This document shows positions 27,910 through 34,755 of a stretch of 64,000 nucleotides of DNA, one piece after another. The position numbers and the translations under genes were made by a program. The stretch's first letter is position 1, and the number at the start of each line of letters is the position of its first letter. Below the pieces are notes generated by a model that ran no database searches, was not told where the DNA came from, and worked only from the letters and a program-made list of their open reading frames with translations. Source of the DNA: Escherichia phage vB_EcoM_VR25; sequence record NC_028925.1; one strand, 5' to 3'.

Positions 27910-29961
27910 CTACGAAAGGAATTTAGGAGGAATACTTTCCAAATTAATACAACTAGCAAGAATACCAAGGCCTTGGTTGACTTTCTTCGTCACCCTGGAG
28001 GATGCAAACGATGCGAAGTCAACAGATTCTTCTGGTTCCTCGCCTTTATAAACGACAAGCTCGCCAGTTTCCATCAACACATCACCATCATAGATAACTG
28101 CATTTTCATCCAGTTGGTCAGTGGTCTGAATGTCAGCTTCCAGCATTTTGACGTTCGCATTTCCTTGATACGACGCATCCGTAATTTTTGTAATCTTAAC
28201 TATAGTTCCACGAGGAAGAATAACTTCTTGCTCGGTCGGGTTTCCTGACAATTCACCAGGAACAATTACGTTAATTAAGTCCGCTCCAGAAATTTTCCAA
28301 CCGACATGCATCATTACGTGGTCGCGGCGGGCATCCGGCATATCTGGTAAAACAATTTCGTCATCAGCCTGGAAAGATGTCCCATCACGATAGTCCTGAT
28401 GAACTGCGGCCATAGCAACGTTCGCCACCCAGCCACCAAAGATAATCGGTTTAAACGACGTTGATACATAGTTCCTGAAATAAAATAATTTAGATTTCTT
28501 AATTTTATCAAATGTAGGAACGTTTAAATATTGACCACGCCAAAGAGTTGTATTAGGCGGCAACTTATGTCCAATTTCAAAGGCCGAATCCAATTCCTTA
28601 ATTGTTTCGACAACTCTGTCTAGATTTAGGAATTCAGCTTCTTCTTCATAATATTTGCCCATCAAATAATTATTAATATCGGCATAGTTTGCTCCACAAT
28701 AATCTGCAATTGCTTCTCGCTGGCCATAATGGAAACGGTTGTCAGTATACCCTGCTGTGAAATTAAGAGTATTTTCTGATGCTTCTTCGGCAAAGTCTTT
28801 AACTGCAACACGAATGGCGCTTGTGTATTCTTTTTCCCAGAGCGAGGCTGCATAAGTGGCTGCATCCAGGTTAGGAGGAGCATCATTCATTTTTCTTTCG
28901 ATAAATGCGGCTTTGCGAAGGTTAAGAATCTCTGCGCATGATTCGGCAAAAATCTGCATCTGCTTCATGCTACCAACTGGGGCACGTTTAAGTTCACGAT
29001 GCATACGGTTAAAAATTGGGTCAGTGTCTTCAACACGAATTTCTTCTTTCCAAACACCATTTGCTCGCATAGCCGTATCCGCGGCGCGCATACGAGCCAT
29101 AGTATTCGTTTCAGAAGGCCGGACGAAAATTTCCAGTTCTTCGGCATCATCAATTAATTCAGCAGTTGCAGGTCGACTAAATTTAGCAGCTTCTGCATCA
29201 ATTTCGTCCCAACCTTCTGGCACGGAATCACTTGGTGCGTACTGGGCTTGTGCAATAGCTCGGCGACTGATTTTAGTTTTCTGTGCAACAGAAGCATCAG
29301 TCTTTTTGTTTGCGGCATCAATCAGAACTTCGGCTGCAATTTCTTGTTTGGAGACTTGTGCACCGTTATCTTTATTAGTGAATACGTCGCCAACTTTTGT
29401 TGTGACTTTTTGATATTTCTCAGGGACTGGTGGCATACCATCAACCGAAAGTAAGTCAACCCCCTTTTTGTACATAATTACATAAGCGTTCTTTTTACCG
29501 AGACCAGATGCATTCGGAAGAACATGATAACGCCCGGAAGTTTTCATTTGAATCAGTCGATTCATAATACGAATAACAGCTTGCTCTTGACCTTTCATCT
29601 TTTTGGAGGGGAAACGGAACAAGACTACATCAGGTTTGCCTAGCTTAATACTTTCCCAGACTGTGGTAAAAATCAGGTTAATCGCATCAAGAGGTTTTTC
29701 ACCTAGGCCGCCTTTCAGAGGAACAGCATGACCATGTGAAGTCCCGGATAACAGGAATACCTCAGCAATTGCATCACCGCGTTTATATTGTTTAACTGTT
29801 TCTTTACCCGTGAATTGCATCAAACGAGCCATAAGAGAATTGGTCCCAGGAACACCGAATTGCCACACCTGTGGGACCTTGTATTTCGGGTTCATATTAA
29901 TGACAGGATAACCGAAGACTTCGATATATTTGTCAAAGAGTTCATTTAATTGTTCAGACAT
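27910..29961 (-). CDS. alt: Alt-like mono-ADP-ribosyltransferase (virion-packaged in T4)
   Basis: 683-aa ORF in the alt slot between 54 and 30; C-terminal Arg / STS / E-x-E arrangement (WRGQ, YVSTSF, EQEVILP) typical of R-S-E ADP-ribosyltransferases. Confidence 0.8.
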   Translation of the reverse strand: MSEQLNELFDKYIEVFGYPVINMNPKYKVPQVWQFGVPGTNSLMARLMQFTGKETVKQYKRGDAIAEVFLLSGTSHGHAVPLKGGLGEKPLDAINLIFTTVWESIKLGKPDVVLFRFPSKKMKGQEQAVIRIMNRLIQMKTSGRYHVLPNASGLGKKNAYVIMYKKGVDLLSVDGMPPVPEKYQKVTTKVGDVFTNKDNGAQVSKQEIAAEVLIDAANKKTDASVAQKTKISRRAIAQAQYAPSDSVPEGWDEIDAEAAKFSRPATAELIDDAEELEIFVRPSETNTMARMRAADTAMRANGVWKEEIRVEDTDPIFNRMHRELKRAPVGSMKQMQIFAESCAEILNLRKAAFIERKMNDAPPNLDAATYAASLWEKEYTSAIRVAVKDFAEEASENTLNFTAGYTDNRFHYGQREAIADYCGANYADINNYLMGKYYEEEAEFLNLDRVVETIKELDSAFEIGHKLPPNTTLWRGQYLNVPTFDKIKKSKLFYFRNYVSTSFKPIIFGGWVANVAMAAVHQDYRDGTSFQADDEIVLPDMPDARRDHVMMHVGWKISGADLINVIVPGELSGNPTEQEVILPRGTIVKITKITDASYQGNANVKMLEADIQTTDQLDENAVIYDGDVLMETGELVVYKGEEPEESVDFASFASSRVTKKVNQGLGILASCINLESIPPKFLS

Positions 29962-30019: not shown

Positions 30020-31552
30020 TTATTTTAACCCCGTCTGTGACCAGTCGCCAAATACTTCTTCGAAAGTATCTGCCTTATCTTTATCGAATCTGAAACCTTT
30101 GATAATCGGAAGGAACAGTTTAACGGTATTATCTTTACGAGTTTCAGAAGTCAACCAACCATTACATTCACAATCAGCAATCATTCCAACTAATTCACCT
30201 TTGCGAGCCTTAATCATAAGAGCTTCGCGGTCCATTTCATGACGCTCATCAATTGGGATAATAGTCCATTTCTTAGTCTTCGGGTCTTTGACTTGTGTTG
30301 TATCTTTGAAGCCTGACCCACAATTGGTAACAATTTTACCGCAAGAAGATTGAAGTACAACACCACCAATTTTATTTGGGTCTTTCTCGTGCTCATAGAA
30401 TCCGATAATTTCCAAAGCGATGTCAATAACTTCTTTGAACTTGTACATATTCTTAGAACGCTTGTTTTCCCAAGGAGCTGCAGTGTTTTTAAGAATAATA
30501 CCTTCGAGTTTTAAAGCAATATATTTCTTATAGATGGCTTTGGCTTCTTCGAGGTTATTAACCACGTGGTTTTCAATCAGAATCATACGGTCGTAGCCAT
30601 GAAGCACCACGTTATCTGCAATCATCTTCTCTAATACCGCGAACCGCACATCATATTTCAGAGGGTTAAGAATTTTAACATCTGAATACACTTCAATCAA
30701 CGGAACATAATCCCAGACCTGGAATTTCATGCCAGCTGCTTCAACCGCAGTGATAGTTCCTTTTAATGATTTGTTCGCTAGACCGTTTGACTTAGTACGA
30801 GATTCCGCAGATTCAATTTGAGTCTCGGCTTGCTCTGTATCGCCAAAAAGGAAGCCCAAACCGTCATTCTGGGGAGCTACTTTCTGTTCATGGTATACTA
30901 ACTCGCCATCAATTAAAACGCCCTCAGGATGTCTCTCACGCGCTTCACGGGTAGCTTCAATCAATTCCTTTTTAAGGAGGTCAAGCTTAAGGTATTCGTT
31001 ACCAGCTCGGGATAGCAATCGAACATCATCCAACTCATCGCCACGAACTTCTGCAAAACACCGAGCACCATCGGCTTTCAATTGTGCAAAGGCCGGGAAC
31101 TTAATGTTCTTGGCAATACCGGCTTCATCATAGGAAGAAGCGAGCATCTGCGGTTGTTCGGGAATTAAACCTTTCCAAACTTTATTCGCAATCGATACGG
31201 ATGCACCACATTCCAGGTCACGCATCATCACACGGCGCAGGACTTCAACATCATCTTTTTTACCATCAGCAATATAGCCAGATAATTCCTCAATTGCAGC
31301 ATTACCTGTTAATTTACGAGGTGCCAATGTAAATTCGATAAAGTCAAGCATATCATCGATATTCAACATGCCAAAGCTTTGAGTCGTTGTCCCGGGTTTT
31401 GGCCATTTCTTGATATAAAACTGAATACCTTTGGAATATGTCAAACGATATACACGTTTAAGGGTTTCATTTTCAGAATACGATTCCAGGATAGCTTGTT
31501 TCTCTTTCGTAGAATCGGTTGCAGCAATTTCATTTAAAATATCTAAAATCAT
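30020..31552 (-). CDS. 30: ATP-dependent DNA ligase
   Basis: 510-aa ORF; MILDILNEIAA..STKEKQAIL... and KADGARC adenylation motif match remembered T4 ligase. Confidence 0.95.
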   Translation of the reverse strand: MILDILNEIAATDSTKEKQAILESYSENETLKRVYRLTYSKGIQFYIKKWPKPGTTTQSFGMLNIDDMLDFIEFTLAPRKLTGNAAIEELSGYIADGKKDDVEVLRRVMMRDLECGASVSIANKVWKGLIPEQPQMLASSYDEAGIAKNIKFPAFAQLKADGARCFAEVRGDELDDVRLLSRAGNEYLKLDLLKKELIEATREARERHPEGVLIDGELVYHEQKVAPQNDGLGFLFGDTEQAETQIESAESRTKSNGLANKSLKGTITAVEAAGMKFQVWDYVPLIEVYSDVKILNPLKYDVRFAVLEKMIADNVVLHGYDRMILIENHVVNNLEEAKAIYKKYIALKLEGIILKNTAAPWENKRSKNMYKFKEVIDIALEIIGFYEHEKDPNKIGGVVLQSSCGKIVTNCGSGFKDTTQVKDPKTKKWTIIPIDERHEMDREALMIKARKGELVGMIADCECNGWLTSETRKDNTVKLFLPIIKGFRFDKDKADTFEEVFGDWSQTGLK

Positions 31553-31562
31553 TAATCACCTC

Positions 31563-31841
31563 TTAGTCGTTGGCTCTATTATATGCCACGTCTTCCAAAA
31601 GCAAATCCAGACGCTTATGATATGAGAACACAAATTTCGTGGCACCATCTGGTTTCATTTTAGTCATGAAGTGAACATAAATGAATCCTTGCTCAACACA
31701 TTCACGCCAAACGGGATTATCTTTAGCCGGATTAATATCAAACGAGTAATCATGATTCACATGACGAATAAACTGGTTAACATGACCATAATCCATCGTG
31801 GTGGTTGGACCACGGTCAGAAATAGTATGAACGACAAACAT
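31563..31841 (-). CDS. Hypothetical protein (30.1-position)
   Basis: Internal start at 31841 with GGAAGGGG RBS, stop-start junction TAATATG with upstream gene. Confidence 0.55.
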   Translation of the reverse strand: MFVVHTISDRGPTTTMDYGHVNQFIRHVNHDYSFDINPAKDNPVWRECVEQGFIYVHFMTKMKPDGATKFVFSYHKRLDLLLEDVAYNRAND

Positions 31842-31842
31842 A

Positions 31843-32655
31843 TTAACCCCTTCCACAGGTCGGTTGATTATACCAGTATTCAATACCAGTACCTACGCCA
31901 TATTGGTATGGATATGCTGGATTATATCCAGGAGTCCATGGCTGACCTGGCTGCCAGCCTTGTTGCATTTGTTGCTGAAGACGTCGAGTTTCACGAAACA
32001 GTTCTTCCAGTTTACGGAGTTCATCTGGTGTGAATTCTGGTTTGGTCGGTTCATCTTTGTGTTTCAGTTTAAGCTGTCCAGCAACATCGTCCCAATTAAA
32101 AACTTTGGAAGCTGTTTTAGGAATAGCATCACGTTCACCACGAGCCATCCAATAAACCGGAACTGCAAGGATTTCACTCGCATGGTCACAATGGTGTGCA
32201 AGGTCATCAATATAACAAATGACATTATATTTGTCTTTTGCCTTCTGGAACAACTCCTCTTTAGAGGCTGTATGACCACACATCATAACTTCTTTAAACG
32301 CACCAGGGAACAAAGCATTCAGGTTGAATTGACGATTCAGGCGGGCGTCAATGGAATCACCCAGGGCTGTAACGGCCACAAAATCATATTGTTCTTTGAG
32401 GTTATTAATAACCCTTAACGCATCTGCATAAGGAGACAAATAACGAATAAAATCTGAACAGTTATATTTCTCAATCAACTGTGCGCCCAACTCTTCATCA
32501 CAATTGAACAGTTTGCCCGGGGTCACAAATTTTTCATCCTGAATCATCTTAAGGATATGTTCCAGGGGTAAATTGTATTTTTGAGCGAAATAAGGCAAGC
32601 CAGATTGCCATGACAAACATACGCCATCAATGTCTGTTAAAATAACGGGTTTCAT
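31843..32655 (-). CDS. HAD-superfamily hydrolase-like protein with Q/P/Y-rich C-terminal tail
   Basis: N-terminal ILTDIDGV (DxDG motif I of HAD phosphatases/nucleotidases); low-complexity tail QQQMQQGWQPGQPWTPGYNPAYPYQYG. Confidence 0.65.
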   Translation of the reverse strand: MKPVILTDIDGVCLSWQSGLPYFAQKYNLPLEHILKMIQDEKFVTPGKLFNCDEELGAQLIEKYNCSDFIRYLSPYADALRVINNLKEQYDFVAVTALGDSIDARLNRQFNLNALFPGAFKEVMMCGHTASKEELFQKAKDKYNVICYIDDLAHHCDHASEILAVPVYWMARGERDAIPKTASKVFNWDDVAGQLKLKHKDEPTKPEFTPDELRKLEELFRETRRLQQQMQQGWQPGQPWTPGYNPAYPYQYGVGTGIEYWYNQPTCGRG

Positions 32656-33119
32656 AATGCATCTCTCAATTGGTTAAGTATGTCAATAAATTCTTGTTCA
32701 GTCAATATTGTATCATGAACAGTAAGGTGGCTCGCCATCGAATGCTTTAAAACTTTGCCCTTTGTAGCTTGTAGTGCGTCGCGGAATCCTTTGTTTTGGA
32801 GAGCTGCTTCAAAATATGCACTTGTATACAACTCTTTCCATGCTGCAGAGTATCTTGAAAAGGGAATTCCAAGCCAGAAAAGCGTCCCACGGTCCGCAGC
32901 TCTTGCATAAGCTCTTCCAGTTTGTTGTGCGACCAGTCCGGACATCCCAAATATACGTTTTTGTTGTTCATGATTTCTCACCTTGCACCCTTGGAGGAAA
33001 CCTTCAAGACCTCCAAACTGGATACCATCCATAACAAAAGGCCATTTGGCAAAGTTACTTAATGCACATGATGGCCACGGAAAATTGCTTCTGATTTCTA
33101 ACTCAGACATCTTTGACAC
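32652..33119 (-). CDS. NADAR (YbiA-like, DUF1768) domain protein
   Basis: Pattern SNF..P...LSNFAKWPF..DG..F...E.FLQ..K closely parallels E. coli YbiA FSNFAAWP..DGKTWPTSEHYFQAQKF. Confidence 0.6.
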   Translation of the reverse strand: MSKMSELEIRSNFPWPSCALSNFAKWPFVMDGIQFGGLEGFLQGCKVRNHEQQKRIFGMSGLVAQQTGRAYARAADRGTLFWLGIPFSRYSAAWKELYTSAYFEAALQNKGFRDALQATKGKVLKHSMASHLTVHDTILTEQEFIDILNQLRDAL

Positions 33120-33315
33120 TGATAATATCTACATCAGCCCAATGACCATAACCAGGTAGACGGTCTGCAATGGATAAACCGCCGTCAGATTTCAGCATTT
33201 TAATTGTTTTAGTATATGGTTCAATATTTCGGGCCCATGGACTTACGTCAGTCACGCGATAAGTCACTTCAACCATTTCTGTGCCCAAAATTTTCTGAAT
33301 CAGTTTCTTAAACAT
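33103..33315 (-). CDS. Hypothetical protein (70 aa)
   Basis: ORF in compact operon, no recognised domain. Confidence 0.5.
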   Translation of the reverse strand: MFKKLIQKILGTEMVEVTYRVTDVSPWARNIEPYTKTIKMLKSDGGLSIADRLPGYGHWADVDIISVKDV

Positions 33316-34200: not shown

Positions 34201-34271
34201 TTTATTCTCCAGTTGTTTTCATTTGTTGGTACAGGTCTATAATATCATAACCTGTACCAAAGTAAACTGTT

Positions 34272-34681: not shown

Positions 34682-34711
34682 ATTATGCACTGGACCAACC
34701 CTGTTGTAAAC
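34682..34711 (-). promoter_or_regulatory. Early-type promoter (TTTACA-17 nt-CATAAT), copy of the 8959-8988 element
   Basis: Same -35/-10/spacer and same downstream leader motif CATACTGAGTTAC. Confidence 0.45.
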
Positions 34712-34719
34712 CCCTTTAT

Positions 34720-34750
34720 GGAAAATAAAAAAGGGACTCCGAAGAGTCCC
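34720..34750 (-). terminator. Terminator after the small basic-protein gene
   Basis: GGGACTC-TTCG-GAGTCCC stem followed (minus strand) by T6. Confidence 0.6.
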
Positions 34751-34755
34751 TGAAC

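Follow-up and report, generated by a model that had tools for sequence, protein, structure and literature searches.

Organization of the adfN locus

The analysed window, a stretch of 64,000 nucleotides from Escherichia phage vB_EcoM_VR25 (NC_028925.1), represents a T-even phage of the VR7-like type (Gaprivervirus). Over the 2.8 kb that surround the gene of interest, its identity to Escherichia phage vB_EcoM_VR7 is 96.8%, and this region has matches in 689 phage records. The gene order 30.4/30.3/30.2/30.1/ligase/alt is common to the window, T4 and VR7. On the minus strand, a 155-aa open reading frame counted from a GTG extends from 33119 to 32652, and the motif quoted in an earlier sequence-only reading of this DNA can be read directly in its translation (RSNFPWPSCALSNFAKWPFVMDGIQFGGLEGFLQGCK). 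That reading was right to treat the ORF as real, but the coding sequence (32652..33110, minus strand) most likely begins at the ATG at 33110 rather than at the GTG at 33119. In this form the gene, adfN (gene 30.3), encodes a phage-NADAR-family ADP-ribosylglycohydrolase of 152 aa, and the homologous gene 30.3 is annotated with 459 nt and 152 aa in both T4 and VR7. The ATG and its ATGTCTGA overlap with the stop of gene 30.4 are kept in all three phages (window, T4, VR7), whereas the alternative upstream start varies in position (GTG at −9 in the window and VR7, TTG at −6 in T4), and this difference in conservation makes the start at 33110 the most likely one. It also brings the residue numbers into line with the published T4 numbering (E36, K43). 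The three extra codons of the mechanical ORF (33111..33119, minus strand) are probably untranslated; the T4 and VR7 annotations begin at the ATG.

The gene is closely packed between its neighbours. Gene 30.4 (33103..33315, minus strand, phrog_2042) lies directly upstream; the end of 30.4 and the start of adfN share 8 nt, which makes coupled translation of the two genes likely. Gene 30.2 (31843..32655, minus strand) follows directly downstream, with its ATG sharing bases with the adfN stop (ATGA).

Within adfN, a second reading frame of 74 aa (32747-32971, minus strand) is annotated as 30.3′ in T4 and VR7. Only close relatives (T4, VR7 and the window) have this frame open, and the corresponding genes of Klebsiella, Vibrio and Erwinia phages lack it at that position; its identity between the window and T4 is 58%, compared to 85% for the main adfN frame. 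As its range is this narrow and its sequence changes faster than that of the main frame, we rejected 30.3′ as a genuine overlapping gene; it is probably unconstrained.

The gene product belongs to the phage-NADAR family

The adfN product matched the Pfam model PF08010 (Phage_30_3) with E=3.3e-64 and 215 bits (cut-off 36), covering profile positions 2-138 (137 of 138), and was assigned to PHROG 652; a search against NCBIfam gave no match. By tblastn, homologs of gp30.3 were found in 1509 phage records; together with the PF08010 match, this places the similarity far beyond chance. Among the family homologs, one is encoded on a bacterial chromosome (Methylocystis). The window protein is 99% identical to gp30.3 of VR7 and 85% identical to gp30.3 of T4, with 23 substitutions in an ungapped alignment across all 152 residues.

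The sequence-only reading had recognized the signature spacing of NADAR proteins as seen in E. coli YbiA. The motif is indeed present, and YbiA (2b3w) was the sole match by sequence in the PDB, with E=0.42 for the single sequence and E=0.022 with a profile of 70 family sequences. In the alignment LSNFAKWPF..DG...E.FLQ..K of the window protein stands opposite FSNFAAWPI..DG...EHYFQAQK of YbiA. A direct match to the profile PF08719, which had been named beforehand as a test, was not obtained for the window protein at E≤1. PF08719 was nevertheless matched by 19 of 70 diverse family members (best E=1.5e-7), and four of the homologs listed carry precomputed PF08719 matches, while the match of the window protein goes to the sister model PF08010. 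Taken at its word, the refuting condition of the sequence-only reading (no profile match) would apply. We consider it too strict in view of the motif alignment with YbiA and these 19 family members, and homology to NADAR proteins is supported by the family and by structure in place of a direct match.

A structure model and fold comparison revealed the NADAR fold, a helical core flanked by small beta-sheets. In the alignment of 70 homologs Glu36 (codon GAA, 33003..33005) and His123 (codon CAT, 32742..32744) are invariant, and Lys43 (codon AAG, 32982..32984) is at least 90% conserved. The catalytic glutamate, on whose presence in an alignment the earlier assignment had been made to depend, is thus in place. 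Both Glu36 and the catalytic lysine Lys43 align with the E and K of YbiA, and both are unchanged in T4 gp30.3. In the model the last beta-strand comprises residues 120-122 with His123 at its end, and the C-terminal helix comprises residues 138-151 (32658..32699, minus strand). The T4 alignment extends to residue 152, showing that the window copy has the full C-terminal helix. The residue in the last strand discriminates the families, being Glu in YbiA-type proteins, Asp in DarT1-associated proteins and His in phage NADARs (PMC11543638, PMC11125620). The window product belongs to the phage-NADAR (AdfN, Phage_30_3) family within the NADAR superfamily, and every defining feature of this family that we tested was found. 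The proposal of a NADAR-fold, ADP-ribose-removing enzyme is therefore confirmed for the fold and the catalytic residues, and the T4 ortholog AdfN is published as such an enzyme.

Function of the T4 ortholog and its probable transfer to the window copy

Phage NADARs including T4 gene 30.3 were recognized bioinformatically as a distinct NADAR group (PMC11543638), and T4 gene 30.3 was renamed adfN, for anti-DarT factor NADAR (Johannesman et al. 2025, PMC11825919). According to the latter study, T4 and T2 are unable to plaque on DarTG1 hosts when adfN is deleted, RB69 is rescued on DarTG1 by adfN expressed in trans, and T4 AdfN is necessary and sufficient against DarTG1. Purified T4 AdfN strips DarT1-modified DNA of ADP-ribose, does not bind DarT1 and leaves DarTG2 unaffected. 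The exchanges E36A and K43A as well as C-terminal truncation weaken the T4 protein, and in the RB69 allele a frameshift leads to loss of the last 15 residues including the C-terminal helix and to lower activity. Phages other than T-even phages are only weakly rescued by T4 AdfN, and a T-even factor or context is suspected (PMC11825919).

In vitro, purified T4 gp30.3 acts as a hydrolase on ADP-ribose linked to guanosine, but not on ADP-ribose linked to thymidine (PMC11125620), and cytidine-linked ADP-ribose (C-ADPr) is not removed by the T4 NADAR (PMC12945103). The methods of PMC11125620 describe the T4 gp30.3 construct as 'residues 1-208', although the T4 gene encodes 152 aa. An independent Tn-seq screen of T4, available as a preprint, bears out the role against DarTG1: insertions in 30.3 are lost on DarTG1 (log2FC −7.25, padj 0) and tolerated on plain K-12, where 27 of 28 sites were hit (10.1101/2025.11.20.689424).

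The window copy has the length of T4 AdfN and occupies the same genomic slot; E36, K43, H123 and the C-terminal helix are all kept. The two proteins differ by the 23 substitutions mentioned above, and their phages belong to different genera, Tequatrovirus for T4 and the VR7-like Gaprivervirus for the window, the latter not being mentioned in the AdfN paper (PMC11825919). Since identity is 85%, length is equal and all residues known to matter are conserved, it is strongly favoured that enzymatic activity and counter-defence carry over from the T4 ortholog to the window copy. We consider it very probable that the window gene is the ortholog of T4 30.3 (adfN) and encodes a guanine-specific NADAR that removes ADP-ribose and counters DarTG1. 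A role against DarTG, as suggested by the sequence-only reading, thus holds for DarTG1 (guanine) by way of the T4 ortholog and does not extend to DarTG2 (thymine). By analogy to the T4 protein, window AdfN is expected to be specific to guanine adducts, with no effect on DarTG2 or on cytidine adducts, and to be fully functional only in T-even infection.

In the mechanism that we propose, the DarT1 toxin of a host with DarTG1 would put ADP-ribose on guanine N2 of the phage DNA and block its replication. AdfN would cleave the N-glycosidic bond between guanine and ADP-ribose via Glu36, Lys43 and His123, which would free ADP-ribose and restore guanine, so that replication could resume. AdfN may accordingly be described as a phage-borne orphan copy of the DarG1 antitoxin activity, in the form of a minimal NADAR-fold enzyme that consists of the core only.

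The core of the sequence-only reading is correct but was already known: papers from 2023 to 2025 describe the fold, chemistry and biological role of the family, and a protein with 99% identity had already been deposited. No new mechanism follows from our analysis, but the locus touches on the question why AdfN of the T4 type requires the context of a T-even infection. AdfN represents a clear case of an orphan bacterial antitoxin activity that is carried by a phage and undoes a DNA-modifying defence. Its recognition here predicts resistance of this phage to DarTG1 and can help in the prediction of host range and in the choice of therapeutic phages.

Comparison with DarG1, YbiA and other anti-DarT factors

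The reaction that we attribute to window AdfN by analogy is that of DarG1, as described for E. coli C7 and Geobacter lovleyi (8bat; Schuller et al. 2023, PMC11543638), and the catalytic pair E88/K95 of the E. coli C7 NADAR corresponds to E36/K43 of T4 AdfN. The two differ in several respects. DarG1 is encoded next to the DarT1 gene, while adfN has 30.4 and the HAD-fold gene 30.2 as neighbours and Alt, at a distance of about 3 kb, as the only nearby ADP-ribosyltransferase. DarG1 has a catalytic Asp in the last strand where window AdfN has His123, and an N-terminal extension of helix and sheet forms a DNA channel in DarG1 (219 aa in 8bat), whereas the 152 aa of window AdfN comprise the core only. 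Moreover, T4 AdfN cannot serve as antitoxin in uninfected cells, which are not protected from DarT1 by T4 gp30.3 (PMC11125620). Without an adjacent DarT, with His in place of Asp and without the N-terminal extension, the window product was rejected as a DarG1 antitoxin.

Assignment to the YbiA type was rejected as well, because the last strand ends in His rather than Glu. E. coli YbiA (2b3w) has Glu in this strand, where His123 is invariant in phage NADARs, and YbiA also removes C-ADPr, while phage NADARs act on G-ADPr only. If AdfN nevertheless acted like YbiA, it could be a metabolite-repair N-glycosidase for intermediates of the riboflavin pathway, and adfN would be an auxiliary metabolic gene. 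The Glu that defines YbiA is replaced by the invariant His123 (PMC11125620), and for the T4 ortholog a DNA substrate as well as a defence phenotype have been demonstrated, so that we regard a role in metabolite repair as extremely improbable.

Other phage proteins act against DarT. AdfN-Bas32 and AdfN-Bas60, from T5-like phages and Vequintavirinae, are likewise phage NADARs that counter DarTG1. Their origin is separate, however, in acquisitions from different branches of the NADAR tree, and unlike AdfN of the T4 type they do not need the context of T-even infection. Two further factors are found in T-even phages: AdfA (gp61.2) of T4 is not an enzyme but binds DarT1, and AdfM (Tk.4) of T4 is a macrodomain protein directed at the thymine adducts of DarTG2.

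Genes 30.2 and 30.4 next to adfN

The product of gene 30.2 was described by the sequence-only reading as a HAD-type hydrolase encoded adjacent to and upstream of the NADAR gene. Fold and adjacency were borne out, but 30.2 lies downstream of 30.3. In the structure model gp30.2 shows a Rossmann-like HAD fold with cap (residues 1-200) and intact motifs I-IV (DxD, S/T, K, DD), followed by a disordered tail. A search of gp30.2 against Pfam gave no match, and profiles of 4 and 46 gp30.2 sequences matched the NT5C structure 2jao with E=0.77 and E=0.1, respectively. A HAD match with E=1.5e-9 was discounted, since it was driven by a Vibrio NT5C protein included in the profile. As sequence searches gave weak matches only, the HAD identity of gp30.2 was settled by structure. 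The C-terminal 70 residues (31843-32055, minus strand) are predicted to form a helix, after which a disordered tail with many Q, P and Y residues follows. The motif GIEYxYNxPTCG at the end of this tail is common to T4, though the intervening part aligns poorly, and many gp30.2 homologs (about 200-220 aa) are entirely without the tail.

The adjacency of the two genes raises the question whether AdfN and gp30.2 form a two-enzyme module, in which the NADAR releases ADP-ribose or a nucleotide product for processing by the HAD phosphatase, with counter-defence depending on both enzymes. The overlap of the 30.3 stop with the 30.2 start (ATGA) occurs in the window, T4 and VR7, gp30.2 has the HAD fold with intact catalytic motifs, and the two genes have a similar spread (1451 phage records for 30.2 and 1509 for 30.3). 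The two genes are also neighbours in the Acinetobacter Lazarusvirus fHyAci03, and almost so in the Klebsiella Slopekvirus KP1. In Vibrio phage 6E35.1a (4001-4959), a different HAD gene (PF06941 NT5C, E=6e-11) begins within the NADAR gene. This Vibrio pair is located between a sigma-factor gene and gp47/46-like exonuclease genes, and its surroundings differ from the ligase region of T4.

Within T4-like phages, however, the adjacency of 30.3 and 30.2 can be explained by inherited gene order. The NADAR gene has no HAD neighbour in phiM12, an Erwinia jumbo phage, Gelderlandvirus and metagenomic jumbo-phage contigs, and a fusion of NADAR and HAD was found neither among the best 120 of 162 matches to 30.3 nor among all 115 matches to 30.2. 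AdfN alone removes ADP-ribose in vitro. In the T4 Tn-seq data on DarTG1, 30.2 is not depleted (71 insertion sites, log2FC −0.12, p=0.61), compared to a log2FC of −7.25 for 30.3. With T4 30.2 dispensable on DarTG1 according to these data and adjacency lacking outside the T4-like phages, the processing pair put forward in the sequence-only reading was not supported for counter-defence. A joint function of 30.2 and AdfN in counter-defence against DarTG1 is largely refuted, and we judge such a module to be quite improbable.

The upstream neighbour behaves differently in the Tn-seq data. On DarTG1, 30.4 is moderately depleted (log2FC −1.79, padj 0.014) and is the only significant gene besides 30.3; the passages of the preprint that we drew on do not mention this depletion (10.1101/2025.11.20.689424). 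It could indicate that the T-even factor needed by AdfN as cofactor is encoded in this small string of genes, with gp30.4 as the lead. The gp30.4 proteins of the window and T4 share 45% identity, against 85% for AdfN, and distant phages have no gp30.4 counterpart beside the NADAR gene. Depletion of 30.4 is most likely due to a polar effect on adfN or to translational coupling with it. Since gp30.4 is poorly conserved, a role as cofactor is less likely than a polar effect, and we consider it unlikely.

Alt and ADP-ribosylation by phage enzymes

The Alt-type ADP-ribosyltransferase noticed by the sequence-only reading at 27910..29961 (alt, minus strand) was verified by a match to PF03496 (E=1.7e-19) and by the VR7 annotation; a functional link of alt to adfN was not found. 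With Alt encoded about 3 kb from adfN, AdfN might mainly reverse off-target ADP-ribosylation of nucleic acids by the phage's own enzymes Alt, ModA and ModB rather than act against host defence. The observation that NADARs also remove G-ADPr from RNA (PMC12945103) would fit such a role. The genes for ligase, 30.1 and 30.2 intervene, however, between alt and 30.3. Alt-type enzymes fall into the exoenzyme-type family PF03496, which is arginine-specific, and guanine-specific ADP-ribosyltransferases are of the DarT or pierisin types. In addition, T4 30.3 is non-essential in the absence of DarTG1, as seen from the 27 of 28 sites hit, and insertions in T4 alt make no difference on DarTG1 (log2FC −0.01) in the Tn-seq data (10.1101/2025.11.20.689424). 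That AdfN serves mainly to correct the phage's own ADP-ribosylation is therefore very improbable, and removal of DarT1-derived adducts is the function that we favour.

Putative transcription signals and further genes

A consensus scan of the minus strand gave a sigma-70-like promoter match (TTTACA-17-CATAAT) at 34682..34710, upstream of 30.8, and a promoter-like site at 34239-34266, before 30.7. Both are candidate early promoters for the tightly packed string of genes 30.8-30 that contains adfN, although the number of sites in the scan was not above shuffled expectation. A strong terminator-like hairpin (8 bp, 5 GC, T-run) is located on the same strand at 34732-34751, after 30.9 and just before the promoter match at 34682-34710. 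Together with the two promoter-like sites, it may plausibly represent signals for early transcription of the adfN string.

Gene 30.1 (31563-31883, minus strand) was given by the mechanical ORF as 106 aa from a TTG, overlapping the end of 30.2, and its product matches DUF3045. VR7 annotates 30.1 with only 92 aa from an internal Met, and the overlap of 30.1 and 30.2 therefore probably reflects the choice of the longest ORF rather than a real overlap. The DNA ligase ORF (30020-31552, minus strand) encodes 510 aa in the window and in VR7 (1533 nt), compared to 487 aa (1464 nt) in T4.
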